NCBI GenBank assembly: GCA_017456555.1
Contig: JAFTJF010000003.1
Span: 64,404 to 128,403 of the forward strand
Source of the DNA: Clostridia bacterium
GTDB taxonomy: Bacteria > Bacillota > Clostridia > TANB77 > CAG-508
DNA: 64,000 bases
Direction of reading: 5' to 3'
The translations under genes and the position numbers were made by a program. Of the stretch, positions 5,123 to 38,298 are shown piece after piece; positions within the stretch are counted from its first letter, which is position 1, and each line of letters begins with the position of its first letter. The notes beneath the pieces are model-generated. The model was not told where the DNA came from and did no database searches. It worked only from the letters and a program-made list of their open reading frames with translations.

Positions 5123-5146
5123 TTAAAGAGTAGCTTATACTCTAGA

Positions 5147-5810: not shown

Positions 5811-6090
5811 TAATCCTCCTAAACTAAATCTTTATCGTTTCTATAGCCATTCATTATCTATTTTGTTTCTAAAATCTTTATTCTTTAATTTAAATTGTTT
5901 AATATAAATTTCATCATTTATATTATCTAAATATATTTATTTAAAATTTTATTAATATTTTTTCTATTCAAAACCTGTTTTCACCTAGATTTACTACATT
6001 TTTAATATTTTTTACAATTTTTTTACTATTGAATTTTGTCGAATTTTGATATATCATATTTTAGAAATTAAATTTCATGTGAGGAATTTT

Positions 6091-20452: not shown

Positions 20453-20484
20453 AAAGCAGACTTCATGTGTCTGCTTTTTATTTT
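20451..20484. terminator. bidirectional terminator closing the EPS operon and the Spo0A_C-like gene
   Basis: AAGCAGAC-TTCATGT-GTCTGCTT flanked by A and T runs. Confidence 0.75.
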
Positions 20485-21539
20485 TATAAATTTATTTTCA
20501 ACATAATTTTATTTAATATTTCCTCTATTTTATTGTACTTAATTTTATCAAAGATGACATCTATAAATATGTCTATAATAACAGATGTTACAAATATAAT
20601 AATTACTGATGTTATCATATTTATAATCATAAATGCATTATTACTCATTTCTTTACATTTTAATATATTCCATAATACATCTCTAACCAAAGGATTATCA
20701 TGTAATATATACACATATAGTAAATGTGGAGTAATAATTTTAATCATCTTATTAAGATTATTATTATTTATTTTTATATCTTTAAATATTAAAAGATGGA
20801 TAACTGCTAACCCAAATAAAAATGAAGATGTTATAGCTGTAAAATGATATATTCCTGCTTTTAAAGCATTTATTTTCATACTAAAATAATAGATACTTAA
20901 AGTTAAAACAAAAATTATTATAACAAATATTAATGCAATTATTTTATAATACTTTTTATACTTATTCTCTTCATTCAATCTAATATATGCCCCAACAATA
21001 TATACATAAATAAACCATATTACATCGCTATACCATGGATCAAAAGATGTAAAAGTAGGAATAACTGAAAGAAGTATAAAACCATATATAATAATTCTTC
21101 TTAATATTTTAGATTCGACATTATTTATTAAATAATTTAAAATTGGAGATATTAAATATAATCCTACATATGCAGTAAAAAACCAATATAACCCACTAAT
21201 CAAAGGTATTACAGAACAAATCCAATTTTTTAAAGTAACTTCACCTATATTAAAACTTTTAAATATTACACATATCAATACTGAATAAAATATAACTTTC
21301 AAATCCATCTTTATTATTTTTGAAAATTTTAATTTATTTTCTTTATAGAAATAACCTGATATTAATACAAATATATTAGCACCTAGCTTTCCACATATAC
21401 TTATTAATAGAGCTAACCAAATATTTCCTGTCACTGTCGAATTTTCTACAATATTTCCATGATATACATAGTGCGACAATATTATAAAAATTATTGATAT
21501 AATTCTTAATAAATCAATATTATACTTTCTTTTTTCCAT
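20484..21539 (-). CDS. acyltransferase family 3 (polysaccharide O-acetyltransferase)
   Basis: About 10 TM segments. N-terminus NIDLLRIISIIFIILSHY is typical of Acyl_transf_3. Confidence 0.8.
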   Translation of the reverse strand: MEKRKYNIDLLRIISIIFIILSHYVYHGNIVENSTVTGNIWLALLISICGKLGANIFVLISGYFYKENKLKFSKIIKMDLKVIFYSVLICVIFKSFNIGEVTLKNWICSVIPLISGLYWFFTAYVGLYLISPILNYLINNVESKILRRIIIYGFILLSVIPTFTSFDPWYSDVIWFIYVYIVGAYIRLNEENKYKKYYKIIALIFVIIIFVLTLSIYYFSMKINALKAGIYHFTAITSSFLFGLAVIHLLIFKDIKINNNNLNKMIKIITPHLLYVYILHDNPLVRDVLWNILKCKEMSNNAFMIINMITSVIIIFVTSVIIDIFIDVIFDKIKYNKIEEILNKIMLKINL

Positions 21540-23058
21540 AAAATATCCCTTCTATTTTTTGCTTAAATAAATTTACAAAATATTTGAAAGATTCATTTTT
21601 TATAGAATATATTATCATTAAAGTAGTGGTTACAATTAATGAGCAAATTACCTTTATACAAAATTCAAATATTTCTGAATTAATTGAAATTGCTGTAACA
21701 AGGTAATAATTAATAATAATTATTACAAATAAATATATAAATCTTACTATAAATCGTTTATAATAGTTTTTTACTTTCATTCTAAAACCATATTTATATA
21801 GTACTAATGGTTCTATCCACGAACTAGATAATAATGAACTTAATATTGTTCCCATAAATATTCCGTCAATTCCAAATTTCATTGCAAAAACAATAGATAA
21901 TACAATATTCAAAAATGCTTCTATCAAAGATTTATATCTATCAACATAAAATAACCCCATAGAATCTCTAAAAGCCAATACTGACTTTCTCATTCCATTA
22001 ATATAAAAACTTATAGATATAATTATTACAGTACTAATCGAAAGCAAATATTTTTCACCAATCCATAATTTTATAAATGGATTAAATAGTGCAATTAAAC
22101 AACTTGTTGATATTGCATAAATAAAATATGTAAAAAAATCTATTTTTAAAAAAATATTTTCTTGTTTATTATTATCCTCTTTACTTGCACACAAATTTCC
22201 TATACTTGCCGTTATTGCATTATATATTTGAGTTATTACAGTCGTTAAAGCACTAATTATCATATTATAATTAGAATATATTCCAACTAAGGTTATGTTT
22301 ATAAATTTTGATATTAATAAATTATCAGTAGAACTCACAACAACCCATCCAATTTTATGTAGCATCATCGCTTTTGCATTTTTGAAAATTTCTTTTTTTT
22401 CATTCTTTTCTAATTGTAATTTCTTATTATTAATATATGGATAATCTTTTCTAGCCTTCCTTGAAATCAAGTAATTCTCAACAATAGTAAATATAATTTG
22501 CAATATCAAAAACAATATGTAATTTTTTGAAACAATTATTACAATAGCCTGTGTTATATATAATAATACATATCCAACATATCTATATAATGCATCAATA
22601 TATTTATCTTGATTTGCAATAATCAATGTTCTATCATATGAAAAAAAGTATGATATGCTTGTGTTAAGTACAAAAAGAATATAAATAAGATAAATATTAT
22701 CATAATCTTTGATATTATCTATAAATAAACTTAAAAAAGGTATTATAAGCATACCTAAACAGAAAATAACCCATCCGATTATTATATAAATTTTTTTAAA
22801 AAAATTCATAATTTGAGTTATTTTAGTCTCATCTTTTTCATATATTGGTTTATATAAGTAATATGTTATAGAAGTTCCAACACCCAATTCTGCTAGTGAT
22901 AGAATTGATAATATATTAGTAAATAAACTGTTTATTCCTAATAAGTCTTGTGATAAAAACTTTATAAAAATAGTTCTTTGAATAAAACTTGCAAATAAGG
23001 TAACAACTTGACCAATAATAGAATATTTAACATTTCTTAAAGATTTTTCTGTCCTCAC
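21520..23058 (-). CDS. wzx: Wzx-type oligosaccharide flippase (MOP superfamily)
   Basis: Polytopic protein. N-terminus SLRNVKYSIIGQVVTLFASFIQRTIFIKFL..LGINSLFTNILSILSLAELGVG is typical of polysaccharide biosynthesis flippases. Confidence 0.8.
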   Translation of the reverse strand: MRTEKSLRNVKYSIIGQVVTLFASFIQRTIFIKFLSQDLLGINSLFTNILSILSLAELGVGTSITYYLYKPIYEKDETKITQIMNFFKKIYIIIGWVIFCLGMLIIPFLSLFIDNIKDYDNIYLIYILFVLNTSISYFFSYDRTLIIANQDKYIDALYRYVGYVLLYITQAIVIIVSKNYILFLILQIIFTIVENYLISRKARKDYPYINNKKLQLEKNEKKEIFKNAKAMMLHKIGWVVVSSTDNLLISKFINITLVGIYSNYNMIISALTTVITQIYNAITASIGNLCASKEDNNKQENIFLKIDFFTYFIYAISTSCLIALFNPFIKLWIGEKYLLSISTVIIISISFYINGMRKSVLAFRDSMGLFYVDRYKSLIEAFLNIVLSIVFAMKFGIDGIFMGTILSSLLSSSWIEPLVLYKYGFRMKVKNYYKRFIVRFIYLFVIIIINYYLVTAISINSEIFEFCIKVICSLIVTTTLMIIYSIKNESFKYFVNLFKQKIEGIFYGKKKV

Positions 23059-23068
23059 AAGATTTTCC

Positions 23069-24079
23069 TCACTTCATTTTTATATTTCTTTTATATTTAA
23101 TTTTTATATATATTTTCTTTAATATTCTATATACTTTTTCTTGTATAGCATTATTTTTTATTTTATTGATTAATATATTTCTCTTTTTTAATTTCCATTC
23201 TGAATATTCACAATCCATTGTGTATTCTTTTATCTTTTTTGTATCTAATGTTATTTCATCAATAAATTTGTTAGGCACTATATAAAAAGAAGTGTAAGTA
23301 TTTGAAATCTCCATTTCCATACTTCTTTTTTGCAAATGAACATACATCACTTCTTTTTCTGAAATTTTATTATTTTCGTCTATAAATAATTCTATCAATT
23401 TTCCATTTTCATATTTAAATATTGAGTTTCTATTTTCACCATTTACATTTTTAAAAGCAAATTTGGTATAATCCACATCAAAATATTCATTTATATTTTG
23501 AGCTCTTATATCTGATTCATTCTCTGCAATTGTACTTACACCATGATCTTCATCAAAATGACAGCATAACTTTATTTTAAAAACTCTTTTATAATTATAC
23601 AAAGTAGAATGATTATCTATTCTAAATAAAGTATTCATTCTCATATTATTTCGATAAATTTGAAAATGACCATATTTATTAATTTTATCACTATTATTTA
23701 GAACTTCTTTTGTAATATAATTACTTAAATTCCCTAAAATTAAATCAATGTCAACATAGCCCCAAAATTCATAATCCTTTATATAATCTTGTAAAGCTAA
23801 ACCAAAAACAGCTTTATAATCACACAATTTATACGCATTTGGCAAACATATTTTAAATTCAAAAACATTTTGAAATATTTCTTTTAACTCTTCGAATTTA
23901 ATATTAATAAATTTAATATTATCATATTTTTTATTAATTACATTATCTGTAAAAATTAAGAAGTCAAAATCTGGATTTTTTAAAGCAGACTCTATCCACA
24001 AATCAAAATAATTGGGAAATTTTCCAAAATAGCAATTTATCAAAACAACTCTATTCATTCTTACACTCTTCCTTTTCAA
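23069..24079 (-). CDS. EPS-cluster protein, putative glycosyltransferase (DUF6625-like)
   Basis: VVLINCYFGKFPNYFDLWIESALKNPDFDFLIFTDN resembles the DUF6625 N-terminus found in capsule loci. Soluble protein. Confidence 0.45.
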   Translation of the reverse strand: MKRKSVRMNRVVLINCYFGKFPNYFDLWIESALKNPDFDFLIFTDNVINKKYDNIKFINIKFEELKEIFQNVFEFKICLPNAYKLCDYKAVFGLALQDYIKDYEFWGYVDIDLILGNLSNYITKEVLNNSDKINKYGHFQIYRNNMRMNTLFRIDNHSTLYNYKRVFKIKLCCHFDEDHGVSTIAENESDIRAQNINEYFDVDYTKFAFKNVNGENRNSIFKYENGKLIELFIDENNKISEKEVMYVHLQKRSMEMEISNTYTSFYIVPNKFIDEITLDTKKIKEYTMDCEYSEWKLKKRNILINKIKNNAIQEKVYRILKKIYIKIKYKRNIKMK

Positions 24080-25229
24080 ACTTATAATAATAATAAAATA
24101 TAGCTAAAAAAGCATATAAAGTTGGATAATATGCATATATTTCTGATATCATCATAACAACATAACTAAACAAAAATGATATCATTATTCTATATTCTTT
24201 ATTTACTTCTTTTATTTTTGGGATAGCTGAATATAACAATATAACAAATATAATTAAATTAACGATTCCACCTTCATATAAAATTTGAATAAATTGATTA
24301 TGTCCTTGCCAATACTCGCCTCTCCAATATACAAAATTACCATCATTTTTATAACCGTGTCCAAAGAATAAATTATCATCAATATAATCATATGATAAAT
24401 CCCATATTTCTGTTCTTCCTGTTAAAGATACACTTTTATGTAACACTTCTTCAATAAATATTGAAAATAAATTTTGAACTCTAAAAAAAGTAATTGACAC
24501 TACTATAATAAAAGCTAATGTTAAAAATATTCGAGGATTTATTTTCTTAAAATATTTACTAATAAAATAGTACATTAAAACTACAATTATTATTCCAACA
24601 ATTGCTGTTGAAATCCATGCTTTAAACATTGTAATTAAAGATATAATTATACAAAAAATATTAAATTTTTTATCTTTATCCATATCCCATCTAATCATTG
24701 AAATAAAAATTAATAAAAATAAATAATCTGTAAATCGCGTTCTAATCCCTAAAAAATGTAATCCCCAAAATTCATTTAAAATACCATCTGGATATTTTAA
24801 ATATAAAACTAAATTTATAGATAGATAAGTTATTAATATGTTTTGAAGTGATTTTAATGTTCTATCTCTATTTCTTTCAAATCCCAATTCTATCATCATA
24901 AAAACAGTTATGTGATTAAGAGATTGATAACCCCATTTTATAATATCACCATCATTTATTATTGTAGGAATTAACAGAGACATTCTGTAAAAAAACATTA
25001 TTACTATTAATTTTGATACTTTTTTATTTTTTATGATAAAGGAATACAAAGCATATAAAAAAGTAACACAAATACCAAAAATAAATAAATAATTTAACTT
25101 AGGTATTTTTACAAAAATTGTAGGTTCAAATAAAAATATTAGTAAGACAAACCAAACTTTCTCACTTATTTCACTATGAATTTTTTTACCCTTTTTTAGA
25201 ACTAAACTTCTCATAATAGTATTCTTCAT
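24051..25229 (-). CDS. wzy: Wzy-type O-antigen/EPS polymerase (O-antigen ligase-like)
   Basis: 10 or more TM segments with a large loop. GRTEIWDLSYDYIDDNLFFGHGY is typical of the Wzy_C region. Confidence 0.65.
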   Translation of the reverse strand: MKNTIMRSLVLKKGKKIHSEISEKVWFVLLIFLFEPTIFVKIPKLNYLFIFGICVTFLYALYSFIIKNKKVSKLIVIMFFYRMSLLIPTIINDGDIIKWGYQSLNHITVFMMIELGFERNRDRTLKSLQNILITYLSINLVLYLKYPDGILNEFWGLHFLGIRTRFTDYLFLLIFISMIRWDMDKDKKFNIFCIIISLITMFKAWISTAIVGIIIVVLMYYFISKYFKKINPRIFLTLAFIIVVSITFFRVQNLFSIFIEEVLHKSVSLTGRTEIWDLSYDYIDDNLFFGHGYKNDGNFVYWRGEYWQGHNQFIQILYEGGIVNLIIFVILLYSAIPKIKEVNKEYRIMISFLFSYVVMMISEIYAYYPTLYAFLAIFYYYYKFEKEECKNE

Positions 25230-26298
25230 ATCTCCTTTGTAGTTGTTTCGTTAATTTTTCAATATTAAAAATAGAATTATCAAAATCTTTCAAATCTCTT
25301 TTATAATGTATATTTTCTATAATACTGTTTTTCCAAGCTTCTTCGGATAATTTTATAAATTCTGATTTTTTCGATATATCTACTTCTCTCGTTATATTGT
25401 CTGAAAATAAACATTTTAATCCATTTGCCTGAGCCTCTATTCCAGTAACAGGTAACCCTTCAAAAAGCGATGGCATTATTAAAATATCCATAGCTTGATA
25501 TATACGATTTACATCTTCTCTTATTCCTAAAAAAATAATTTTATTATTTATATTTAAATCACATGCTAATTTATTAATTTCTTCTTTTGTTTCTCCATCT
25601 CCAATTAATAACAATTTCAAATTTTCATTTTCTCTTAATAATTTTTCCATTAAATTTATTATAAATTTGTGATTTTTTTGCAAATTAAATCTTCCAACAT
25701 GTCCTATAACAAATGTTTCTTCATTAATATCTAATTCTTTTCTAACAGTTTCTCTTATTTTAGGATTATATTCAAATTTTTTGAAATCAATAGCATTTGG
25801 AATAACATCAAAAGACTTCTTTTTATATAAATACTTCCCCGCTTCATTTGAACATGCCCATCGCACATTAGCATGTTTATCAGCAAATCTAAATAAAATG
25901 TACTTTGCAATACCTTTTACCGTTTTTAAAAATGATGTTCCATGACTATGTATAATCCTATATTTTACCCCATTTTTTTTTGCAATCCATAAATATATAA
26001 ATGCTAAACTTGCCATATGTCCATGAACAACTTTATATTCTGTATGTTCTTTAAAAAATTTATCTAATTCTTTTATATATCTTATAACATTTTTATTTTC
26101 CATTACTGGAAATCTATATATTTTTCCACCTAATCGTTCAATCTCTTCATCAAAAAAACATTTTTTATTATAATGGACTAAAAAATCAAATTGTATCTTA
26201 TTCTTATCAATATTTCTATATATGTTCATTATAAAATTTTCAATTCCACCTTGTTGCATATTTGGAACTATTTGCAATATTCTAATTTCATTTCCCAT
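25186..26298 (-). CDS. glycosyltransferase family 4 (GT-B)
   Basis: GRFNLQKNHKFII..MPSLFEGLPVTGIEAQANGLKCLFSD matches the E-x7-E GT4 signature. Confidence 0.85.
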   Translation of the reverse strand: MGNEIRILQIVPNMQQGGIENFIMNIYRNIDKNKIQFDFLVHYNKKCFFDEEIERLGGKIYRFPVMENKNVIRYIKELDKFFKEHTEYKVVHGHMASLAFIYLWIAKKNGVKYRIIHSHGTSFLKTVKGIAKYILFRFADKHANVRWACSNEAGKYLYKKKSFDVIPNAIDFKKFEYNPKIRETVRKELDINEETFVIGHVGRFNLQKNHKFIINLMEKLLRENENLKLLLIGDGETKEEINKLACDLNINNKIIFLGIREDVNRIYQAMDILIMPSLFEGLPVTGIEAQANGLKCLFSDNITREVDISKKSEFIKLSEEAWKNSIIENIHYKRDLKDFDNSIFNIEKLTKQLQRRYEEYYYEKFSSKKG

Positions 26299-26308
26299 TA
26301 GTTATCCT

Positions 26309-27487
26309 CTATTTTAATATTTTTTTTATTTTATTTTTAATCTTTATAGGAATAATTGTTTTTATAAAATTTTTAACCTTATTTTTTATTATTAAATTCT
26401 TTTTTACAAATTTCTTAGGTGATAAAGTGTCAATTCCATAATAAATATTATTACGAGTAATTTTTCGTTCTGTTGGTCTCTCTAAATTCTTATTTTTCTT
26501 CAAAATATCATCTAAAAGAACTTCTTTAAATTCAATATCATTAACAAGTTCTAAAAAAAGTTTTCTTCCCTTTTCTGAATTAATTAAAACTGCTGAAACA
26601 CCATTATCATCATAAAAATTACTATCTATTAATTCTATTCCCCAAAAATCCCCAAGAGTAATATCAGAAACTCTTTCTTTTTTGGCAAATTTACAATCAT
26701 AGCAAGACTCCCTATAAGTATTTCCTTTCAAAAAATTATAATAATATGGGTCACTATTTGCATTTATATATACATTTTTATTATTATTCGTAAGAATTTT
26801 TGCACAAAAATTCCCCCAAACTTTCTTTTCTTTATTTCTAAAATCATAATATATAATGCTTTGGCGAATTTTTTCTTCTAAATATTTTATATATTTTAAG
26901 AATAGTTTTTGACTAGGAACTCCATGACAAATAAAATCTATCGTATATAGGTTATCAAAATCTTTTTTTAAAAAGGATTTTAATCCTGCAATTTGACATG
27001 GTGTTCCTATATATATTACCTTTTTATCTTTAAGCAATTCATTTTTTACATCAACAAAAGTTTCTTTTGTATCACTAAATATATATTTTGATCCTCTTAT
27101 TTCATCTAAACCTTCTAAATTTGTTACTTCTATTTGATTAACAGTCATATCTTTATTTAATTTTGAACCAAATACACATCCATTTTTTTCTATTATTTTT
27201 TTAGAAAAAAGATATGCAATTCCCGCTGATGTACTTTTTCTAGCACATTCTTCATCTTTATTTTTAATAGCATAAGTTTTTAATGGTTTTTCTTTTTTTA
27301 CTTCATTTAATAACGGACATACTTTCTTACAAATTCCACATTTTACGCATTTATCATCTAAAACTATTGGATATATGAAACCTTCTTCATCTTCTTGCAT
27401 TATAATCGCTTTTTGTGGACAAATTTTTTCACAAGCTCTACATCCAACACAATCTTTTTTTTCTTTAATTTGTATATAATCTTCCAT
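26309..27487 (-). CDS. coenzyme F420 hydrogenase/dehydrogenase beta-subunit-like Fe-S protein (pyruvyl-transferase partner)
   Basis: Two 4Fe-4S ferredoxin motifs (CVGCRACEKICP and CVKCGICKKVCP) followed by an FrhB-like body. This type is commonly paired with polysaccharide pyruvyl transferases. Confidence 0.75.
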   Translation of the reverse strand: MEDYIQIKEKKDCVGCRACEKICPQKAIIMQEDEEGFIYPIVLDDKCVKCGICKKVCPLLNEVKKEKPLKTYAIKNKDEECARKSTSAGIAYLFSKKIIEKNGCVFGSKLNKDMTVNQIEVTNLEGLDEIRGSKYIFSDTKETFVDVKNELLKDKKVIYIGTPCQIAGLKSFLKKDFDNLYTIDFICHGVPSQKLFLKYIKYLEEKIRQSIIYYDFRNKEKKVWGNFCAKILTNNNKNVYINANSDPYYYNFLKGNTYRESCYDCKFAKKERVSDITLGDFWGIELIDSNFYDDNGVSAVLINSEKGRKLFLELVNDIEFKEVLLDDILKKNKNLERPTERKITRNNIYYGIDTLSPKKFVKKNLIIKNKVKNFIKTIIPIKIKNKIKKILK

Positions 27488-27502
27488 AAGACTCCTTTAC
27501 TA

Positions 27503-28615
27503 TTATAAAGCACTATCTATATACTTATTAGCAATTATTCTTTGCTCTTTTAAAATATCATTCGCAACAGAAAAATCTATTCTTTTATTGCACAAAGATA
27601 TATCTTCATAATTATCAACAATTCTATCTTCTAATTTTGTTATTTCTAATATACTTCTAACTCTTGTACTATATTTTTCTGGAAATACAATCATAAATTC
27701 TGTGTTAAAATTAATAGAGAAAGCAGTTGCATGAAAAGAATCAGTAACAACATATTGAGCATATTTTAATAATGATAAAAAATCTTCTACTTTAACATTG
27801 CATTTCATTTTTCCTTTTTTATAAAATTCATGTAATGCATAAGACACATAATATATCTCTAAATTTTTTTCTTTTGCTAATTTTTCTACATATTTATCAA
27901 TCTTTTTGTTTCTATTTAAATTATATACAAAAATAAACTTTTTATCTTTGTATCGTTCAGAAGCCAATTCACTCCACTCTTTTCCTGTTAATAAAAGAGT
28001 CGGATCAACTACATTTATAGCACCTTTAATCCCCAAATCTTCAACAATCTCAACTCCCGAAATTTCTCTCAAAGATAGTTTATTATATTTTTTTAAAAGT
28101 CTCTTAGTTTCGTCTTTTTCCCAATTCTCTAATTTACTTTTCCCAAAACTTGCAGCATAAGAAAAACATTTTTTTCCATTTGTATCAAAATCTAAAAAGA
28201 ATGGTGAATCTATTTTTTCATTCCAACCAGTATTCCATACTTGGTCACTTCCAGTGCAATAATAATCTGCAATTGGTGGATTATTTTTCAAATCATCTTC
28301 ATTCTTATATATAACATTAGATAAATTAAGGTTTTTATTAATAAATTTTTTAAATGTATGAAATCTTTGAATATATGATGGAATCATTATTACTCTCGCA
28401 ATATTTCTTAAAATAATATTCTTTTTAAACTTTTGACTTTTATTTTTTATTCTTTTTAACATTCCTAACATATGCATTCTTTCAGGATAATAATCTATAA
28501 ACTCAACATCTAAATTTTTATTTTCAAAAACCTTTTGAGTCGCATATGCTTGAAGAACTGAACCATAATTTACGATTCTATGTAATGTAATTATATTAAT
28601 TTTTTTCTTTTCCAT
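27503..28615 (-). CDS. polysaccharide pyruvyl transferase
   Basis: INIITLHRIVNYGSVLQAYATQKVFE N-terminus and ..VVTDSFHATAFSINF motif are typical of PS_pyruv_trans. Confidence 0.8.
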   Translation of the reverse strand: MEKKKINIITLHRIVNYGSVLQAYATQKVFENKNLDVEFIDYYPERMHMLGMLKRIKNKSQKFKKNIILRNIARVIMIPSYIQRFHTFKKFINKNLNLSNVIYKNEDDLKNNPPIADYYCTGSDQVWNTGWNEKIDSPFFLDFDTNGKKCFSYAASFGKSKLENWEKDETKRLLKKYNKLSLREISGVEIVEDLGIKGAINVVDPTLLLTGKEWSELASERYKDKKFIFVYNLNRNKKIDKYVEKLAKEKNLEIYYVSYALHEFYKKGKMKCNVKVEDFLSLLKYAQYVVTDSFHATAFSINFNTEFMIVFPEKYSTRVRSILEITKLEDRIVDNYEDISLCNKRIDFSVANDILKEQRIIANKYIDSAL

Positions 28616-28616
28616 A

Positions 28617-29453
28617 TTAATTTCCTTTTTTTCTTAATATTTTTTTATAAATGATTTCTCTAATAAAATTTGGCATTAGGCATGTTATAATACTTGCACT
28701 AGAACTTATAATATAATCTTTTTTTGAAAAAAAACCATTTTTTACTTGTTCCGTTTTAAATTTTAATATAGATTTTAAATATTTGATGCCACCACGCCTT
28801 TTATAAAAATCGTCACTCACTCGCATATATACCAAATTTTCTTGAATGTTATATGCTTTTGCATTTACATTAAACAACCTAATCCACATATCATAATCTT
28901 CACATAAATAATATGTCCTGTAATTTCCTGCTTCCAATATTTTACTTTTTCTTAATAACATCGATGGATGTCCAAATGGGTTTCTTTTTTTAGCAAATTT
29001 AATAATTTCATTATGCTTTTCAGGCAATACTCTATAAGCTCTTATGTTCTTTATATCTCCTGTAAATTCAGCTATATTAGACCCTACCATATCTAAATTA
29101 TATTCTTGTATAATTTTCAACTCTTTTTCTATTCTATCTTTTCTAGAAATATCATCTGAATCCATTCTAGCAATATATTCATTTTTGCATTGTTTTACAC
29201 CTATTGCTAATGCTGGTCCTAGTCCAATATTCTCTGATAATTCTATAATATTAAATATATCTGAATACTTTTTACAATATTCAGATATAACAAAATTCAA
29301 TTCTTCATTTAATTTTCCATCTTTTACTATTACAAAATCATTTGTTTTTATAGTTTGATTCATCATACTTTCTATGCTTTCTATCAGCCAATCTTTATTA
29401 TCTTTATAATATACACTCATCAAAACACTATAATTTATTGCATTTGTATCCAC
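28617..29453 (-). CDS. glycosyltransferase family 2
   Basis: YSVLMSVYYKDN..ESIESMMNQT and the DxD-type ARMDSDDIS motif. Confidence 0.85.
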   Translation of the reverse strand: MDTNAINYSVLMSVYYKDNKDWLIESIESMMNQTIKTNDFVIVKDGKLNEELNFVISEYCKKYSDIFNIIELSENIGLGPALAIGVKQCKNEYIARMDSDDISRKDRIEKELKIIQEYNLDMVGSNIAEFTGDIKNIRAYRVLPEKHNEIIKFAKKRNPFGHPSMLLRKSKILEAGNYRTYYLCEDYDMWIRLFNVNAKAYNIQENLVYMRVSDDFYKRRGGIKYLKSILKFKTEQVKNGFFSKKDYIISSSASIITCLMPNFIREIIYKKILRKKGN

Positions 29454-29457
29454 TTCT

Positions 29458-30195
29458 CTATACTGCTCCCTCTTTTTTTAAAACAGATATTACAGTTTTA
29501 AATAAAATTCCTATATCCATAAAAATAGAATTATTAACAACATAATGAAATTCCATTTCAACTCTTTCTTCGTAAGAAGTTTCACTTCTTCCATGTGCTG
29601 CCCAATATCCAGTCACACCTGGTTTAACACTTAAAACTGCATTTTTAAATTCTCCAAATTTTTCAATTTCACCATCTATTACAGCTCTTGGACCTACTAA
29701 ACTCATCTCTCCTTTTAGTACGTTTAAAAACTGTGGAAATTCATCAAGAGATGTTTTTCTTAATATTTTTCCTATTTTTGTAATTCTTGGATCATCGTTC
29801 AATTTTCTATGTTCTTCCCACTCTTTTCTAGCATCTTCATCTTCTTTAAGAAGTTTTTCTAAAACTTCTTGTGAATTCATACACATACTTCTAAATTTAT
29901 ACATTTTAAAGTGTTTTCCATTTTTTCCAATTCTTTCATGAGAATAGAAAATTGGTCCAAAATCCTTATTTAAAATATTTATTATTTTCACAACAATAGT
30001 AAGTGGAATTAATATAATAATCCCTACTATCGCCCCAACTATATCCATAATTCTTTTGAAAAAAGAATTTATATATTTTATGTATTTAATACTTTTCCTA
30101 AAAACAATTAATCCTTGAATTTCTGAATTTAATTGATTGTTTTCAGTAACTTCTGTTTGTTCAAAAGTTTGTAAAACTCCTTCATTTATATTCAT
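29458..30195 (-). CDS. undecaprenyl-phosphate sugar phosphotransferase (small monotopic PGT, Bac_transf family)
   Basis: FKRIMDIVGAIVGIIILIPL..PIFYSHERIGKNGKHFKMYKFRSM..DEFPQFLNVLKGEMSLVGPRA. Confidence 0.9.
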   Translation of the reverse strand: MNINEGVLQTFEQTEVTENNQLNSEIQGLIVFRKSIKYIKYINSFFKRIMDIVGAIVGIIILIPLTIVVKIINILNKDFGPIFYSHERIGKNGKHFKMYKFRSMCMNSQEVLEKLLKEDEDARKEWEEHRKLNDDPRITKIGKILRKTSLDEFPQFLNVLKGEMSLVGPRAVIDGEIEKFGEFKNAVLSVKPGVTGYWAAHGRSETSYEERVEMEFHYVVNNSIFMDIGILFKTVISVLKKEGAV

Positions 30196-30366
30196 CTTCT
30201 ACATCCTTTTTTAATTTTTCATTAAAAATAATTTTGGAAACTCTGAGTATATTTTGATTCAATGAATCACTTCTTTATATGCACTTCTAGTACATAATGC
30301 CGATACCCAAGCAAATTAAATTTTTCATATAGAAAAAATCAATTACCTATCTATTCCTAGTAGGAT

Positions 30367-31596
30367 TTAATCTAAAATAAGTCCAAATTTTTTCAGACAC
30401 ATTTTTCCAATATTCATTGCAGTATTAAAATAATAATTCCCATTATGACCATTCTCACATGAGAATTCACTTTCATTTCTCTTCACTTTTGCTCTACATT
30501 TATGACATTTACTTGCTGTGTAATTTTGTCTAACAGTTGTAATAAGTATTCCTGCTCTAAAAGACTTATAAGATAAATAATTTATAATTATTCTTCTTAG
30601 TGTTATTGGACTGTATTTTCCAACTTTATGCCCAAATCCAACAACATCATCTTCTAATTTTGTTATAGAAATTACTTTGACATTGTTTTCTAAACAGAAA
30701 TCAATTATTTCTTTACTAACTTTGTGAGCTGTATTTTGTCTAATGCGATTTAGTTTTTCCCAATATGTCCTATGGTCTGCTTTATCTAGTGTTTTCTTTC
30801 CATTTTGTCTATGTTTCTTAATTTGCTTCAAAATCTTATCTGTTTGAAACTTGTAATAATTTCCACCAGAAATAAATTTTGATTTTACAAATTCTCCATT
30901 TCGGTTTAAAATAGTGCAGATTGCAATATTATCTGTATTAGAAAAACTAATTCCACACACCCTCAAATTTTCATCTTGCATTCTTTCTTTAACTGGTCTT
31001 ACATCTTCTACAATTTCTCTGACAGGAAGATGCATCATTACATATCGAGAATTAATAACAAGAGTCGGTGACATACTTTCTAAGTTTTCATCAAACGCTC
31101 TGCCTTTCAATTTTGCTTTAAACCACTCCCATTTATAACCATTCCAAAGTTTAAGCATTACAGAATCTTTTTTTAATTCTTTATACATTCCTTGATAAAA
31201 AACAGGAGAACAATTAAATTCAGTTGTAATCGATGGTTCTTTTCCTTTTTTCCCCTCTTGTTTCTCATAATCACTTAATAGTGAAATATAAGACCTTGCA
31301 GAACCAATTGCTTGATTTATTGCTGATCTTCTAAAATATGTTGGTAATTCCATATCTAAATAATTCTTAGGAACATCGCCATTTCGACTAATAATTGTTA
31401 TTTTTTCAAGCTCTCTCAAACAATATTGATTACTTAAATTTAAAAACTCTATATTTTCTAGTAATAAGTTGTAATAAAATAAAACAACTTGGTTATAAAT
31501 ATTCTTAGTAAGTTTTACAAAATCCATATGATTGATATAAAGTCTCAACTTATATGTAATTGTGCAATATCCAGCCTTATTTTCAGTTAATTCCAT
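30367..31596 (-). CDS. TnpB-like (IS200/IS605 OrfB-type) protein with apparent loss of RuvC catalytic residues
   Basis: TnpB hallmarks: N-terminus ITYKLRLY, LPTYFRRSAINQAIGSARSY, Zn-ribbon CHKC..C. The RuvC-I position reads GISFS instead of GxDxG. The RuvC-III position reads YYFNTAMNIG instead of xxDxNAAxNI. No Y1 TnpA gene is adjacent. Confidence 0.7.
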   Translation of the reverse strand: MELTENKAGYCTITYKLRLYINHMDFVKLTKNIYNQVVLFYYNLLLENIEFLNLSNQYCLRELEKITIISRNGDVPKNYLDMELPTYFRRSAINQAIGSARSYISLLSDYEKQEGKKGKEPSITTEFNCSPVFYQGMYKELKKDSVMLKLWNGYKWEWFKAKLKGRAFDENLESMSPTLVINSRYVMMHLPVREIVEDVRPVKERMQDENLRVCGISFSNTDNIAICTILNRNGEFVKSKFISGGNYYKFQTDKILKQIKKHRQNGKKTLDKADHRTYWEKLNRIRQNTAHKVSKEIIDFCLENNVKVISITKLEDDVVGFGHKVGKYSPITLRRIIINYLSYKSFRAGILITTVRQNYTASKCHKCRAKVKRNESEFSCENGHNGNYYFNTAMNIGKMCLKKFGLILD

Positions 31597-31618
31597 ATAT
31601 CACACCAACCTTTTTTAT

Positions 31619-31646
31619 TTTCGTTAAATATGCTATTTAACGAAAA
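31619..31646. repeat. left inverted core site (IR-L) of the invertible cassette
   Basis: TTTCGTTAAATATGCTATTTAACGAAAA, internally palindromic (TTCGTTAAATA-TGC-TATTTAACGAA). Its reverse complement recurs at 32739..32766 with 26/28 identity. Confidence 0.75.
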
Positions 31647-31672
31647 TAACCTCATTATAAATTACTTATGAG

Positions 31673-31701
31673 ATTATATCAAACATGTATATAAATTACA
31701 A
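31673..31701 (-). promoter_or_regulatory. extended -10 promoter (TTGTAA-17-TGATATAAT) inside the cassette, firing toward IR-L and the TnpB-like/EPS operon
   Basis: Minus strand: TTGTAA at 31701..31696, a 17-nt spacer, TATAAT at 31678..31673, preceded by TG at 31681..31680. Confidence 0.55.
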
Positions 31702-31769
31702 GGAAATTTCGACATTTTTCTATGTAAATTTTTTGTGTATTCGGCAGAGCCGTAAGAAAGGGGATTTCA

Positions 31770-32699
31770 TTGTTCAAGATTAAACATTTATTTTTTACAA
31801 AAGATATTTATTTTTATACTATTATAGATAGTTGGTTAATCTATAAATATAACTCAGTAAAAGAATCGACCTATTTAAAATATAAATATATGATAAAAAA
31901 ATATCTTTATCCTGAATTAAAATATAAAACATTAAAAGAGCTTATCAATTATGACTATAATAATTTTATAAGTAAGTTTTATTATTTAAATAACAATACC
32001 ATAAAAACTTTAATAACCATATTAAAATCAATTCTTAAATATACAGAAAGAAAACATAATGTTGATTTAAAATTAGATTTAATTCAATATCCAAAAACAT
32101 TAAAAAAAGAATTAGAAATATTTTCTGATAAAGAAAAACAAAAATTAATATCTTATTGTTATAATGATAATTCTCTGAAATCAATAGGGATATTAATCTG
32201 TTTATATACAGGAATAAGATTAGGGGAACTTTGTGCATTGAAGTGGAAAGACATTAATTTAAAAACAGATATAATTTCCATTAACGAAACATTACAAAGA
32301 GCTTATGATAATGACTCAACAAAAATTATAATAGGACCTCCCAAATCAACTTCATCTATAAGAAAAATACCTATAAACAAAAAACTTCATAATATTTTAT
32401 ATTCGGTGTATAAGCTCAATAAATATGATAGTAATGCTTATTTTTTAACAGGAACTATTGATAAATTTATAGAACCTCGTAACTATCAATATACTTTCAA
32501 AAAAATCCAAAAAAATTTAAATATACCAAATCATAATTTCCATATATTAAGGCACACATTTGCAACAGACTGTATAAAAATAAATATGGATGTAAAATCA
32601 TTAAGTAGAATATTAGGACATGCAAATGTGAATATAACGCTTAATAAATATGTTCATCCATCTTTTGATTCTACCAAAAAATATTTAGAGAAAATCTAA
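31770..32699 (+). CDS. tyrosine recombinase (XerC/D-like, putative invertase)
   Basis: TTG start behind a GAAAGGGGA RBS. GIRLGELCALKWKDI (Arg I), HILRHTFATDC (HxxR), LGHANVNITLNKYVH (His..Tyr). Confidence 0.85.
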   Translation: MFKIKHLFFTKDIYFYTIIDSWLIYKYNSVKESTYLKYKYMIKKYLYPELKYKTLKELINYDYNNFISKFYYLNNNTIKTLITILKSILKYTERKHNVDLKLDLIQYPKTLKKELEIFSDKEKQKLISYCYNDNSLKSIGILICLYTGIRLGELCALKWKDINLKTDIISINETLQRAYDNDSTKIIIGPPKSTSSIRKIPINKKLHNILYSVYKLNKYDSNAYFLTGTIDKFIEPRNYQYTFKKIQKNLNIPNHNFHILRHTFATDCIKINMDVKSLSRILGHANVNITLNKYVHPSFDSTKKYLEKI

Positions 32700-32701
32700 G
32701 G

Positions 32702-32742
32702 CTCGTATAAAGATTTCAATCTTTATATGAGTCTTTTTTTTT
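32702..32742 (+). terminator. intrinsic terminator of the recombinase gene, abutting IR-R
   Basis: 13-bp stem CTCGTATAAAGAT-TTCA-ATCTTTATATGAG followed by a T9 run. Confidence 0.8.
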
Positions 32743-32766
32743 CGTCGAATAGCATATTTAACGAAA
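32739..32766. repeat. right inverted core site (IR-R) of the invertible cassette
   Basis: TTTTCGTCGAATAGCATATTTAACGAAA. Its reverse complement is TTTCGTTAAATATGCTATTCGACGAAAA, which matches IR-L at 26/28 positions. Confidence 0.75.
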
Positions 32767-32783
32767 TTTTTTAAGCACAAAAA

Positions 32784-32809
32784 AGCAAATGAATCTTCGT
32801 TCATTTGCT
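32784..32809. terminator. bidirectional terminator just outside IR-R
   Basis: AGCAAATGA-N8-TCATTTGCT flanked by A6 and a T-rich run. It overlaps the stop codon of the ORF at 32801. Confidence 0.65.
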
Positions 32810-33091
32810 TTTCTTCTTATTATCATTTAATGATTCTACCATTAATGAGTTTGCAAGAGAAAAACCATATTTGAAACCGACTCTCATCATATTAATTCCT
32901 TTTTCTTGATTTAAGTCCATACAATCAGAAAGCATTCTTTTAATATCTTTATTAAATCTTTTTCTAACATTATCTTCGCTCTCTTCTGCAAGTTCTGACA
33001 ATTTTAAATATCTTTCATCTCTTTCTAGTTTTTCAAATAGTTTATTCTCATAATTATAATAAAGTTCTTCAAGTGAATTTTCAATTTCCAC
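32801..33091 (-). CDS. hypothetical small protein (96 aa from the GTG start)
   Basis: The ORF in the track starts at 33148. A GTG at 33091 behind a GGGGTGA RBS is the more plausible start. No family recognised. Confidence 0.4.
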   Translation of the reverse strand: MEIENSLEELYYNYENKLFEKLERDERYLKLSELAEESEDNVRKRFNKDIKRMLSDCMDLNQEKGINMMRVGFKYGFSLANSLMVESLNDNKKKSK

Positions 33092-33323
33092 TTTTTCACC
33101 CCCATTAATAACCAAATTTATATTAATGGTAACACATAAAAACCCCATTTTCTACTTTTTTTGATGATAAAAGTGTTGAGACCGTAAAGCTTTCAGCCAA
33201 ACATCTTGAAATTACTCATAACTTTTTTTAACTGTTTGGGGACTTTTTAAACTTTTAAACTCATTTTCAAACAAAAACACAAACAAAATCTCTATACTCC
33301 TTGAAAATACTCATCAAAAACCC

Positions 33324-33337
33324 GTCCAGCTACACCA
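33324..33337 (+). repeat. tRNA-3'-end-like remnant (GTCCAGCTACACCA), a candidate secondary att junction
   Basis: It ends in ACCA and is followed by a terminator-like hairpin (GAGTCTCT-TTTT-AGAGACT..). It lies 47 nt downstream of the motif CAAACAAAATC, almost the same spacing (48 nt) as at the outer attR. Confidence 0.4.
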
Positions 33338-33514
33338 TTGAGTCTCTTTTTTAGAGACTTTTTTTATTTTTTCTTTTTATCTTTTTTTATCCTTTATTAA
33401 TCACTTTTAGCAACTACAAACGCCTCTTATCACCTCTTATTTACTCTCAATTTATTTAAACAGAAACCCAAACAAAATCCCTAAAACATATTAAAAACAG
33501 TAATAACCACGCCG

Positions 33515-33528
33515 TCTGGGTGCACCAA
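33515..33528 (+). repeat. attR core: direct repeat of the tRNA-Arg(ACG) 3' end
   Basis: TCTGGGTGCACCAA is identical to 11280..11293. The next 5 nt match at 4 of 5 positions. Confidence 0.75.
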
Positions 33529-33664
33529 GAAGTAGTTTTTTAAAACTGCTTCTTTTTTTATTTTATTGCCAATTCGTTAAGATGTATTATAGTATCAATT
33601 TTGCTATAATATTATAAATATGTTATAATATTGCTATACTACAAAAGTTAAAGGAGGAATAATT

Positions 33665-34354
33665 ATGAAGAAAAAAATAATAATTATTTTGCTAGTTATT
33701 CTTGTTATTTTATTAATTGTATTAAGATTTTATAATGAAATCGGATGGTTTATACACGAAAAAATATATGACTATAAATATAAAAATGCATATTGCATTG
33801 AAAAAGATTTATCTTATGATATTGAAAATAATTTAATTGAAGAAAATTTGGTTGAAATAGATGATTTTAAAGTGGTTTTATCTGATTTAAATTATACAGA
33901 AAATAAATTAAATTTTAATTTAAAATTTTTACATTTAAAACCTTTAAATCATTCAGGATATATATTGAGGGTATTTAATGAAGACTATTGCTTAGGCGAT
34001 AGATTTAACGGACAAATCTCTTTGGATACATCTTTTGAATGGTTTATAAGTATGGATAAATTTTACGAAAAACACTTTAATATTCATAATGCAACAAGAA
34101 ATCAAAATGAGCATATGTTATTTAAAGGTAATATAATAAAGCATGACGAACTTTTTGACGATGGCACTTTAGTGCATAAAATATCTTTAGAAATACCAGA
34201 GGAATTTGTTATAGATGATATTTTAAATATTGATTTATTTGATATGAATTATCAAAATATTGGAGATACTAATTTTTATCAAGTAAAAGAACCTTTAACT
34301 GAATTACAATACAATATTAACTTTACAAACACAGATTCGACACCTAGCAATTAA
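33665..34354 (+). CDS. hypothetical N-terminally anchored protein (229 aa)
   Basis: AAAGGAGGA RBS and an N-terminal TM segment. No family recognised. Confidence 0.55.
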   Translation: MKKKIIIILLVILVILLIVLRFYNEIGWFIHEKIYDYKYKNAYCIEKDLSYDIENNLIEENLVEIDDFKVVLSDLNYTENKLNFNLKFLHLKPLNHSGYILRVFNEDYCLGDRFNGQISLDTSFEWFISMDKFYEKHFNIHNATRNQNEHMLFKGNIIKHDELFDDGTLVHKISLEIPEEFVIDDILNIDLFDMNYQNIGDTNFYQVKEPLTELQYNINFTNTDSTPSN

Positions 34355-35281: not shown

Positions 35282-36889
35282 TTACAGAAATTCTATATCA
35301 TCTAAAAACTCTTTCACAGTTTCAATATTTTTAATATTATTTGGAACTTCTAATTCATACACCATTCCTTTGTATATGAACATATAAATATTATAAACAT
35401 CACTACTACTTTCTGTCCACATAATAGCATCTATTTCTTTTAATTTTGTATTTTTAACATTATAAAATTTAAAATCATTAAAAGTAAAATTCTCAGAATT
35501 AATTTTTTGACCATCTATAATTATTTCTCTATTTTTTCCTAGTTCTAAAATTTCTGACCTATTTAAATTTATTGCATCTGCTCTATTTTCTAAATATATT
35601 GGATATTTTTCTTGAAATGGATGCACTCCCCAAGACACGCTATCAACATATCTTCTAAATTCTGCAAGCTCTTCTAATGTCCTATTTTCTAAATTTTCAT
35701 AACATTCTAAACGAATAAAATCGTTATACTCCTTTTTATCACCAAAATATTCATATAATCTTAAGTCCATTCTATAAATAGTTCCATCATGTAAGGTTGA
35801 GTTGTTTTCATAAATATCAACATCTAATTCTTCATCATATTTCAATTTTAAATCTTGCCATTTTTTTGTAGTATATGAAATCTCTTTTCTTGCTTTTTTC
35901 TTAATATCATTTCTTAAATCAATAGTAATTGTTCCTTCAGATAATTTTTCTGTTCCATCAACTTCAGATATATTTATAGTAATTTTTGAATCAAAATCTA
36001 TTTTCTTAAAAACAATTTCTGTTGGTGTTCCTCCTGGAATTCTTTGAATATTACTTGGAAGAATAACTTCACCATTTTCATCAATAATTTCTATAAAATA
36101 ATCTACACCACCAGTAAGGTATCCATCTAAATAACATACCAGTTTTGTTGCCAAATCTGATTTTTTTATTTCTAATAAATTTAAAGTTTTATATATATGA
36201 TTTTCTGGAATCTCTTCTAATTTCAATTCTTTTAATGTAACTTTCTTATCATCAAATATATATTCTTCATAATCAAGTACTTTTCGTTTGCTTTCTAATG
36301 GAATTCTAAAACTCCATTCTCCTATATGCTCACCTGTATCTAAATATTTAGGTAAATAAATTTTAGTTTCAAATATTGCATTATCACTAATTTTACTTGT
36401 ATCGAAATTGTATACAGCAATAGCCTCATACTCTGTATCGTTTATTTTATTAAGTGTCATTTGAATACTTCTTTCTAGTCCATATACATTCTCACCATCT
36501 ATAATTCTGCTAATATCTATCATATTATTTACAAAAGTTTCTTCTACATTATTTACTTTTAACTTATATCCTACAATTAAAGTGTTATCGTCAAAACCAT
36601 AACTTTCTAATATCAAACTCGCATTTTCATCAACTTGTACATCATTTACTTGTGTTACATCGAAAAGTTCTAATTTGTCAAGAACATATGAAATTATATT
36701 TTGATTATATGTAGCATATGTATAAATATTTCCACCAACAATTCCTGCAACAATAATAAAAGAGGCTGCTTTGAAAAACATATTTGTTTTTTTCTTTACT
36801 TGAGTATTATTTTCTTTTCTAAATTCTTCAATTGCAATTTTTTCTTCTAATCTTTTTAATACTCTTTGATTCAAATCTTTATTTTCCAT
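35282..36889 (-). CDS. putative anti-sigma factor / membrane-anchored ectodomain protein
   Basis: Its start overlaps the stop of the sigma gene at 36879..37433 by 11 nt. Short cytoplasmic N-terminus, one TM segment and a large beta-rich ectodomain (GEWSFRIPLE motif, as in DUF4179-type anti-sigmas). Confidence 0.55.
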   Translation of the reverse strand: MENKDLNQRVLKRLEEKIAIEEFRKENNTQVKKKTNMFFKAASFIIVAGIVGGNIYTYATYNQNIISYVLDKLELFDVTQVNDVQVDENASLILESYGFDDNTLIVGYKLKVNNVEETFVNNMIDISRIIDGENVYGLERSIQMTLNKINDTEYEAIAVYNFDTSKISDNAIFETKIYLPKYLDTGEHIGEWSFRIPLESKRKVLDYEEYIFDDKKVTLKELKLEEIPENHIYKTLNLLEIKKSDLATKLVCYLDGYLTGGVDYFIEIIDENGEVILPSNIQRIPGGTPTEIVFKKIDFDSKITINISEVDGTEKLSEGTITIDLRNDIKKKARKEISYTTKKWQDLKLKYDEELDVDIYENNSTLHDGTIYRMDLRLYEYFGDKKEYNDFIRLECYENLENRTLEELAEFRRYVDSVSWGVHPFQEKYPIYLENRADAINLNRSEILELGKNREIIIDGQKINSENFTFNDFKFYNVKNTKLKEIDAIMWTESSSDVYNIYMFIYKGMVYELEVPNNIKNIETVKEFLDDIEFL

Positions 36890-37433
36890 ATTTATACCCC
36901 CTTTCTTCTAATGCTTTCTTTATTTTTTTTCGTATTCGATGTAACTTTGTACTAACATTAAATTCGGTATAACCAATTCTTTTGGCTATTTGTTTTATTT
37001 TCATACCTTTAAAATAAAACATTATAAATATTTCTTTATCTTTTCCAAATTTTTCAAGTTCATTTGAAATAATTTCAAATTCTTCTTTTGATTCAACTAA
37101 TTCTTCAATATTTTCTTTGGATTTTATTTCTTCTTGAGTTTCAATAGATTCATAAGAAATATTTAAACTTCTTAATTTATTTTTCGCAATATTTTTAGTG
37201 ACACCAGCTATATATGGCTTTAATGGAAAATTATAATTTAAATTTTCTTTATTTTTCCATAATACAAGAAAAACATCAGATATCATTTCTTCAATATCTT
37301 CGTCTGTTAGTAGATTTTTGGTTATATTTTTTATAATCACTAAAATATAATTACTGTAATCATTAACTATCTTTTCTACATTTAAAGAATTATCATTATT
37401 TATATAATTTCGTATTAAATATGCATCTTCCAT
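36879..37433 (-). CDS. ECF-type sigma-70 family sigma factor
   Basis: Region 2 is SDVFLVLWKN..YIAGVTKNIAKNKL. Region 4 is IFIMFYFKGMKIKQIAKRIGYTEFNVSTKLHRIRKKIK. Confidence 0.8.
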   Translation of the reverse strand: MEDAYLIRNYINNDNSLNVEKIVNDYSNYILVIIKNITKNLLTDEDIEEMISDVFLVLWKNKENLNYNFPLKPYIAGVTKNIAKNKLRSLNISYESIETQEEIKSKENIEELVESKEEFEIISNELEKFGKDKEIFIMFYFKGMKIKQIAKRIGYTEFNVSTKLHRIRKKIKKALEERGYKYGK

Positions 37434-37566: not shown

Positions 37567-38298
37567 CTATAAATTATTTATTCTTTCTTTTAACTCTTCA
37601 TCATCAATTTTATTACTATTCCCCTCTACCATCATTTGTGAAAATTCTCTTAAAACTTGTTTTTCTTCTTCTGTTGGATTCATAGTGTCAAATATTTCAA
37701 CTACACAACGTAATAATGTTTTTCCAGTTTCTGAGAAAGTATAAGATTTAATCATATCTGTTTCTGGATTTTCGTTATTCATTTCAGCAAGTATTTGATT
37801 GATTTTTTCTTCTCCATGATATTTGTACATTATTGATTCAAAATCGTTTTCCAATTGTTCATATTCTTTAATTCTTGTATCTATTGCTTCTGGTGAGTTA
37901 TAAGAATTCTTATTATCAGACACTACATTAATTTCTTCTACAACATTACCTATAATCACTATATTATTCTCTTCAATAACATTTCCTATAGGTTCTTCCT
38001 CTATTTTTGGTTTACTTTCAGCAGGTATCATTACTGACACCTCTTTTCCCATTAATTCTTCTGGAATATTTTCCCCAACAACTATAACTGGTTTTCCATT
38101 TATTGGATTATATTTTATAATTTTTGTAACTGCCACAACGGCACAAGTTGTAAAAATAATCATACAACAAGCAACTGCTACAATTTTAAAAATATTAGAA
38201 CTATTTTCTCTCTTTTCTATCATTTCCTTATCATCAAAGTTGGACATAGAAATTTTTAATTTTACATTTTCTAAGATTTTTTCTTTATTTATCATCAC
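37567..38298 (-). CDS. putative anti-sigma factor (single-pass membrane protein)
   Basis: Overlaps the upstream sigma gene by 14 nt. Has a TM segment (IVAVACCMIIFTTCAVVAV). Confidence 0.5.
   Translation of the reverse strand: MMINKEKILENVKLKISMSNFDDKEMIEKRENSSNIFKIVAVACCMIIFTTCAVVAVTKIIKYNPINGKPVIVVGENIPEELMGKEVSVMIPAESKPKIEEEPIGNVIEENNIVIIGNVVEEINVVSDNKNSYNSPEAIDTRIKEYEQLENDFESIMYKYHGEEKINQILAEMNNENPETDMIKSYTFSETGKTLLRCVVEIFDTMNPTEEEKQVLREFSQMMVEGNSNKIDDEELKERINNL

Follow-up and report, generated by a model that had tools for sequence, protein, structure and literature searches.

Can a segment of DNA that carries its own recombinase gene switch a neighbouring polysaccharide locus on and off? 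The question is raised by a 64,000-nt stretch of a Clostridia bacterium genome (GTDB lineage Bacteria; Bacillota; Clostridia; TANB77; CAG-508; GenBank assembly GCA_017456555.1, contig JAFTJF010000003.1, positions 64,404 to 128,403 of the forward strand), here called the window. A preliminary description, made from the letters of the window, had proposed an invertible cassette at positions 31619-32766, in which a tyrosine recombinase gene and an outward promoter lie between inverted core sites, immediately upstream of a gene for a TnpB-like protein and an exopolysaccharide (EPS) operon. We find that this 1148-bp segment has undergone inversion in nature with a precise junction, and we consider it probable, with good though not complete confidence, that it is a self-contained inverton whose own recombinase flips it and which exerts ON/OFF control over the EPS operon.

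Inverted core sites bracket the segment

The left core site, or inverted repeat (IR-L, 31619..31646), reads TTTCGTTAAATATGCTATTTAACGAAAA and consists of an outer arm TTTCGTTAAATA, an asymmetric centre TGC and an inner arm TATTTAACGAAA(A). The right core site (IR-R, 32739..32766) is an inverted copy of IR-L, with centre GCA and a CG variant in its inner arm; read on the opposite strand, 32739-32766 gives TTTCGTTAAATATGCTATTCGACGAAAA, identical to IR-L at 26 of 28 positions, the sole difference being TA to CG. The inverted 28-nt repeats are thus as first described, and so is their make-up as imperfect palindromes around an asymmetric centre, each site having 12-nt arms and the centre (TGC on the left, GCA on the right) being its only asymmetry. 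As these centres are opposed, IR-L and IR-R are mutually inverted. When the 64-kb window was searched for the repeat pattern with up to three mismatches, it was found at these two places and as a palindromic self-match of IR-L, and nowhere else; none of 100 dinucleotide-preserving shuffles contained a match, and chance is ruled out as the explanation of the pair. A scan of Joint Genome Institute (JGI) metagenome contigs with TTTCGTTAAATATGCTATT, the outer arm plus centre, gave 14 matches, all attributable to chance, none with the full palindrome and none near a recombinase or TnpB-like gene, and so gave no sign of further sites. A reading of the core sites as dif/Xer sites was rejected, since two inverted copies bracket a gene and inversion is observed.

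Both orientations occur among natural contigs

The exact recombinase protein was looked up in public assemblies, which returned 11 contigs, and a look-up of the exact TnpB-like protein added L105, in the window orientation, and L106, in the inverted one. Contigs L001 and L105 have the orientation of the window while L002, L003, L005 and L106 are inverted, all with an identical recombinase or TnpB-like protein. The recombinase gene of L002 and L003 is co-directional with the TnpB-like gene and the flanks are unchanged, which means that the segment has flipped. We built the predicted inversion by joining the left flank, the reverse complement of 31619-32766 and the right flank, and found that L002 matches it at 2547 of 2548 bases, the unflipped form aligning only partly, with the core site of the inverted form present at both junctions. 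Both orientations therefore lie between the same flanks, as had been predicted from the mutual inversion of the repeats. In either orientation the inner-arm CG variant lies beside the 3' end of the recombinase gene, and the outer flanks swap; the variant thus travels with the segment, which locates the exchange in the 19 nt made up by outer arm and centre, a position that agrees, as would be expected, with strand exchange in the central spacer.

Two further lineages carry the segment in both orientations, which extends to relatives the comparison that the preliminary description had proposed. In the P0003 lineage, whose recombinase is 83% identical to that of the window, L015-L020 and L021 have opposite orientations, and in the P0018 lineage (63% identical) L007-L010 and L012 are opposite to L011 and six similar places. 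Synteny is kept in both, from the DUF6809 gene through the cassette and a 409-aa TnpB-like gene to Bac_transf and variable glycosyltransferase genes. The site sequences vary by lineage (TTTCGTTTAATA-TCT-TATTAAACGAAA in P0018; centre TAC in P0003, TGC in the window), and within each close-lineage locus both sites are always palindromic with mutually inverted centres. This paired change of both sites across lineages is strong evidence that the sites function.

Could the two orientations instead record independent insertions of what is mainly a mobile element, rather than flips in situ? Inverted repeats do bound a unit with a single recombinase gene, the closest solved relative of the recombinase is a conjugative-transposon integrase, and related cassettes front many different operons, so that the module has been relocated over evolution. 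Yet the cassette holds the same position between the DUF6809 and TnpB-like genes in lineages with 63-83% recombinase identity, and the inverted form is otherwise base-for-base identical, with the very same junction nucleotides. Neither an empty site nor a second insertion site was found among the contigs carrying the exact TnpB-like protein, the unit is without target-site duplications or cargo, and its matches in phage records are distant only. We regard independent insertion as highly improbable.

Window-orientation and inverted contigs come from different samples, and in ERZ28019339, the sole sample with two informative contigs (L005 and L106), both are inverted. This would suit a view in which inversion is rare or fixed and strains are locked, or in which the junctions are assembly artefacts, palindromes being able to break assemblies, and in which there is no functional phase variation. 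Against it, the assemblers finish with k-mers longer than a 28-nt site (contig names are of the type k141_..., and Logan assemblies use k = 31), so that real reads must span every junction, and both orientations recur in three lineages and many samples. Moreover, contigs whose ends coincide with the two sites (L006, 1148 nt, three samples; L013, five samples; L022, with 12 nt of additional flank) come from at least eight samples, and we infer that these are the product of a mixed-orientation population in a de Bruijn assembly graph. Sites, promoter and terminator are also kept down to about 35% recombinase identity, which argues for selection for a switch. That the inversion is rare, fixed or artefactual, with no functional phase variation, is in our assessment very unlikely.

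The segment encodes a tyrosine recombinase

The segment contains one credible gene, as had been noted, which encodes a 309-aa tyrosine recombinase (31770..32699, plus strand) with a TTG start and the ribosome-binding site (RBS) GAAAGGGG at 31756-31763; a 67-aa antisense open reading frame (ORF) at 32035-32238, inside the recombinase gene region, is probably spurious. The protein matches Pfam Phage_integrase (E = 4e-24), only tyrosine-recombinase families match it in profile searches, and it does not have the serine resolvase/invertase fold. Its nearest solved structures are Tn1549 Int and XerA, its catalytic residues align with those of Tn1549 Int, and 30 aligned relatives all share R150, K192, H258, R261, H284 and Y294, in keeping with the intact R/HxxR/Y signature previously attributed to it. 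Homologues of the recombinase number more than 6000. In a phage collection it found only partial or distant matches, of at most 49% identity and mostly on unannotated faecal contigs. The integrase module of a phage or of an integrative and conjugative element was considered and rejected, as the sites are inverted, the recombinase gene is the sole content and the phage matches are distant only.

These features suggest that the encoded recombinase is the invertase. It would act on both inverted core sites and flip the whole segment, with the palindromic arms of each site binding two recombinase monomers around the short asymmetric spacer.

The window also holds a second, larger integrase-like ORF (440 aa, 11531-12853, minus strand), which is about 25% identical to the cassette recombinase over 293 aa. 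A search for core-type inverted repeats flanking this ORF found none, and it was judged unrelated to the switch.

Outward promoters and terminators are conserved in a family of cassettes

A consensus scan found the outward extended -10 promoter of the preliminary description, a sigma-70-type promoter at 31701..31673 (minus strand) with the sequence TTGTAA-17-TATAAT and a TG extension (TGnTATAAT), and a second promoter that had been missed, which overlaps the first at 31682..31654 (minus strand; TTGATA-17-TATAAT, 11 of 12 consensus positions). Both of these predicted promoters (31654..31701) point across IR-L to the TnpB-like gene, and the distance from the end of IR-L to the ATG of that gene (31596) was measured at 22 nt, the same value as estimated before. 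On the other side of the segment, the predicted recombinase terminator (32698..32743, plus strand) consists of a hairpin at 32698-32735 with a 17-bp stem and a T-run that overlaps IR-R and, as first described, abuts it. The terminator placed beyond IR-R at 32784..32809 corresponds to an A/T-flanked hairpin at 32781..32812, which is likely the terminator of the DUF6809 gene and is present in related lineages. Between the -35 element of the outward promoter and the recombinase gene lies a conserved motif, AAATTTCGACA (31704..31714), also written AAATTTCGAC(A), which by eye is kept in the window, in the L007 and L015 lineages and in L109 despite diverged surroundings; a regulator might bind there, or the motif could serve the recombinase gene as a weak -35 element.

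We scanned for relatives of the cassette in one genome per species. This returned 80 loci from uncultured gut Clostridia, Lachnospiraceae, Ruminococcus and similar groups, and in 25 of them a high-scoring inverted repeat brackets the recombinase gene. The related segments measure 1.1-1.45 kb and have the site consensus TTTCGTAAAGT-N5-7-ACTTTACGAAA. Of the 25 cassettes scored, 24 have a near-consensus outward promoter, typically TTGACA/TTGACT-17-TATAAT, at a distance of 8-47 nt from the left site, and in these 24 it is the best match on the antisense strand, with all scores above the intragenic control mean. The close lineages, and several of the distant cassettes, have a clear hairpin and T-run after the recombinase stop codon and ahead of the right site. 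The layout of site, promoter, recombinase gene, terminator and site thus occurs in about 25 gut Clostridia loci, where the neighbours of the cassette include genes for Bac_transf priming sugar transferases, Wzy-type polymerases, CpsB, NusG-like proteins and SLH or other large surface proteins, a NusG-like protein being the first gene by the cassette in L086. The same recombinase family also includes the classic layout, in which an inverton of 190-350 nt directly follows the recombinase gene (L039, L043, L052, L053, L055, L063 and L072); these short invertons carry sites of the type TCTTTAAGT-N5-ACTTAAAGA, and that of L063 precedes a TnpB-like gene. With both layouts in one recombinase family, the self-contained form is a layout variant among invertases.

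The sequenced orientation is predicted to be ON

From the arrangement of these elements, the sequenced orientation would be the ON state, with the tandem promoters reading over IR-L into the gene for the TnpB-like protein, which is predicted to be nuclease-dead, and on through an adjoining RNA and nine EPS genes. After inversion the recombinase terminator and IR-R would face the operon (OFF), and the promoters would aim at the hairpin at 32781-32812, antisense to the DUF6809 gene. On this reading the EPS genes would have no other promoter, and a search of the minus strand from 30000 to 34000 found no terminator-like site. The outcome of such switching would be a heritable and reversible ON/OFF heterogeneity of the surface polysaccharide. 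It is a matter of speculation that, as the DUF6809 gene is co-directional with the recombinase gene in the flipped form, read-through might tie the recombinase level to orientation.

Beside the separate samples from which the two orientations come, several points weigh against this reading. Promoter-like hexamers in this region of 25% G+C are no commoner than in shuffles (35 versus 32.2 expected), so that the promoter call rests on its conservation in relatives and not on the match itself. An internal EPS promoter is possible, a weak match (9 of 12) being found at 30458..30430. Another recombinase might act on the sites, the integrase-like ORF at 11531-12853 being one in the window, though without such sites around it. 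Several distant reference genomes, finally, carry a large, regulated-looking gene that runs the same way as the recombinase gene, and counting therefore does not settle which orientation is ON.

This last point leads to an alternative in which the segment inverts and its main output is something other than EPS, either the recombinase or the DUF6809 gene being affected through antisense transcription or read-through, or the orientation in which the recombinase gene runs the same way as the operon being the ON state by read-through. The inverted promoters would be antisense to DUF6809, a conserved neighbour, read-through between the co-directional DUF6809 and recombinase genes of the inverted form could set the recombinase level, and the assemblies of many distant relatives show the big downstream gene in the co-directional arrangement. 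We nevertheless hold this to be very unlikely: in close and several distant lineages a strong terminator separates the recombinase gene from the right site, a hairpin terminator lies between that site and DUF6809, and the conserved near-consensus promoter always points outward beside the left site.

The first gene behind the promoters encodes a TnpB-like protein with a partner RNA

In the sequenced orientation, the first gene past the outward promoter encodes a 409-aa TnpB-like protein (30367..31596, minus strand). It matches Pfam Cas12f1-like_TNB and NCBIfam guided_TnpB and Cas12f2, all with scores under the curated cut-offs. Alignment to Cas12f/TnpB structures indicates that S, T and Y occupy the places of the three RuvC catalytic residues D, E and D, the corresponding motifs being GISFS for GIDxG, ISITKL for ...E(D)L and NYYFNTAMNI for NADxNAAxNI, and the protein is by this measure predicted to be nuclease-dead. 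The clade to which it belongs is small (84 protein clusters), and loss of the RuvC residues is common to its aligned members, with the exception of P0187, which retains the third Asp. Synteny of the TnpB-like gene with Bac_transf is conserved. No TnpA-type family was found among the adjacent ORFs scanned, transposon ends not having been searched for.

A predicted structured RNA of 138 nt (30231..30368, minus strand) starts at the TnpB-like stop codon and ends ...CAGAGUUUCCAAAAU. It has five helices, and in an alignment of 11 modules 93.7% of the cells are paired and 24 of 41 pairs have compensatory changes, values that were reached by none of 500 shuffles and of which slid controls also fell far short, the alignment having been fitted to the model and hence being biased toward the structure. 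No TnpB-like gene examined lacks the RNA, which adjoins all 11 well-scoring modules. A search of 29800-33600 against Rfam at a permissive E-value gave only chance-level matches, the RNA itself being without an Rfam match, and a match to our RNA model at 20154-20229 of the window (E = 0.47) was taken as chance.

Two loci carry other arrangements of these genes. L035 has tandem TnpB-like genes (1301-4045; 32% and 36% identical to that of the window) ahead of Bac_transf, each copy followed by its own RNA, and the sequences past the two scaffolds differ. In L109, a 43%-identical relative, the RNA (4846-4984, plus strand) lies upstream of the TnpB-like gene (5001-6278), between the inverton and the ATG, and the stop codon of that gene abuts the Bac_transf start. 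The position of the RNA in L109 means that the order of RNA and protein gene is not fixed.

The 35 nt that follow the scaffold in the window (30196-30230, minus strand) include the RBS of the next gene, and the putative guide, taken as the sequence past the scaffold, reads TATTTTTAATGAAAAATT.... In 10 of 10 modules examined, 16-35 nt separate the end of the scaffold from the start codon that follows, and the putative guide overlaps the RBS there, which could point to regulation in cis instead of, or besides, DNA targeting. Searches for a guide target in the window and in each related locus gave only short A/T-rich matches, in inconsistent places. Together, the TnpB-like protein and its RNA look like a candidate pair of effector and guide-RNA scaffold, the signature of a TldR-type RNA-guided regulator, and the "putative RNA-guided regulator" of the preliminary description fits a protein that is predicted to be nuclease-dead and has a partner RNA. 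A tentative proposal, which we think more apt to be wrong than right, is that the ON transcript yields both the polysaccharide and an RNA-guided dead-TnpB complex that silences, for example, a competing surface-polysaccharide locus, so that each cell has one coat, by analogy with the cross-inhibition that UpxZ exerts between Bacteroides capsule loci. If true, TldR-type regulators would gain a physiological role not seen before, and one of them would for the first time be placed under DNA-inversion control. A variant of this proposal starts from the short distance that always separates RNA end and start codon, and would have the complex regulate, in cis, the operon that encodes it.

The polysaccharide operon and neighbouring genes

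Downstream of the TnpB-like gene and the RNA are nine tightly packed polysaccharide-synthesis genes (20484..30195, minus strand). Profile matches identify a priming sugar transferase, a GT2 glycosyltransferase, a pyruvyl transferase and an FrhB-like Fe-S protein, and five further ORFs resemble, by sequence and not by profile scan, genes for a glycosyltransferase, a polymerase, a flippase and an acyltransferase. L015 and L016 have an identical recombinase and the same order of TnpB-like and Bac_transf genes, yet their downstream glycosyltransferase and sugar-modification genes are different, a pattern that resembles serotype-like cassette exchange behind a constant head of switch and regulator.

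Beyond IR-R lies the DUF6809 gene (32801..33148, minus strand), which adjoins the cassette on the right in each of the three close lineages and whose gene call in L001 starts later, giving 96 aa. A few kilobases from the switch, two ORFs (36879-37433 and 38285-38833, both minus strand) have the look of paralogous sigma factors of the extracytoplasmic function (ECF) type; they carry precomputed Sigma70_r4_2 and Sigma70_r2 matches on the identical contig L001, and each is followed by an uncharacterised ORF.

Comparison with known systems

Promoter invertons flipped by tyrosine recombinases ahead of capsule, fimbrial or flagellar operons are textbook systems, known cases being Escherichia coli fimS with FimB/FimE, the RecV switches of Clostridioides difficile and the Tsr recombinases of Bacteroides. 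The cassette shares with these classic promoter invertons short inverted repeats, an internal promoter, a tyrosine recombinase, an association with surface structures and the natural occurrence of both orientations, and differs from them in that the recombinase gene and a terminator lie inside the inverted DNA, which makes for an inverton of 1.15 kb. A Clostridial "inverton group 139" with nearby tyrosine recombinases has been catalogued (PMC11892184). Large surveys deal mainly with much shorter invertons: in the PhaseFinder set more than 75% are under 300 nt, and it was on these short ones that DeepInverton was trained (PMC11602134). At 1.1-1.45 kb, the cassettes described here exceed the short invertons of such surveys, and phase variation in gut Firmicutes may as a result be under-counted.

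The likeness to Salmonella Hin/hix lies in a recombinase gene and an outward promoter between inverted sites, where a flip joins a downstream operon to the promoter or cuts it off. Hin belongs to the serine recombinases and depends on the Fis enhancer; here the fold is that of a tyrosine recombinase with R-K-H-R-H-Y residues, and the sites are Xer/dif- or loxP-like, with palindromic arms and an asymmetric spacer. The characterisation of the cassette as a Hin/hix layout built with a tyrosine recombinase is therefore apt as regards the internal gene and the outward promoter, the enzyme not being a serine recombinase. Its supposed uniqueness did not stand: the cassette is one member of a large family, and a tyrosine invertase gene can also sit inside the hsdS "epigenetic invertons" of Streptococcus pneumoniae (PsrA/CreX), Enterococcus faecalis and Treponema denticola (PMC7672463). 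Those shuffle coding sequence, namely target-recognition domains, whereas here a promoter and a terminator move and no coding sequence is shuffled.

What is new is the promoter inverton that carries its own recombinase and an insulating terminator as a widespread family, and the coupling of the switch to a dead-TnpB and RNA module. The inverton module is compact and portable, and it recurs in uncultured gut Clostridia next to genes for capsules, EPS and surface proteins. Being self-sufficient, it should lend itself readily to tests in a heterologous host and to use as a genetic switch. The inverton as such is of moderate significance; the part that could prove important is the TnpB-derived regulator. 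A predicted dead TnpB, with its RNA, here stands at the head of a polysaccharide operon that is probably phase-variable.

Groups of TldR described to date are associated with fliC, oppF and Clostridial flagellin/csrA (bioRxiv 10.1101/2023.11.30.569447; 10.64898/2026.09.22.753285). The main texts of these two papers make no mention of polysaccharide loci or DNA inversion, the sole match to "invert" being irrelevant, and a literature search for an association of TldR-type proteins with either found none. Common to TldR and the protein described here are a TnpB homologue without the three RuvC catalytic residues and a conserved, adjoining structured RNA; the differences are that a polysaccharide locus under an inverton is involved, that the RNA of L109 lies upstream of the protein gene, and that homology of our RNA to omega RNA is putative. 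A further parallel is offered by the capsule loci of Bacteroides, in which an invertible promoter is followed by the upxY and upxZ regulator genes and UpxZ cross-inhibits between capsule loci. Although the regulator at the Clostridia locus is TnpB-derived and its repression of other loci in trans is a speculation, both systems have as the first gene behind a phase-variable promoter one that encodes a regulator, or in our case a putative one, and not a biosynthetic enzyme.

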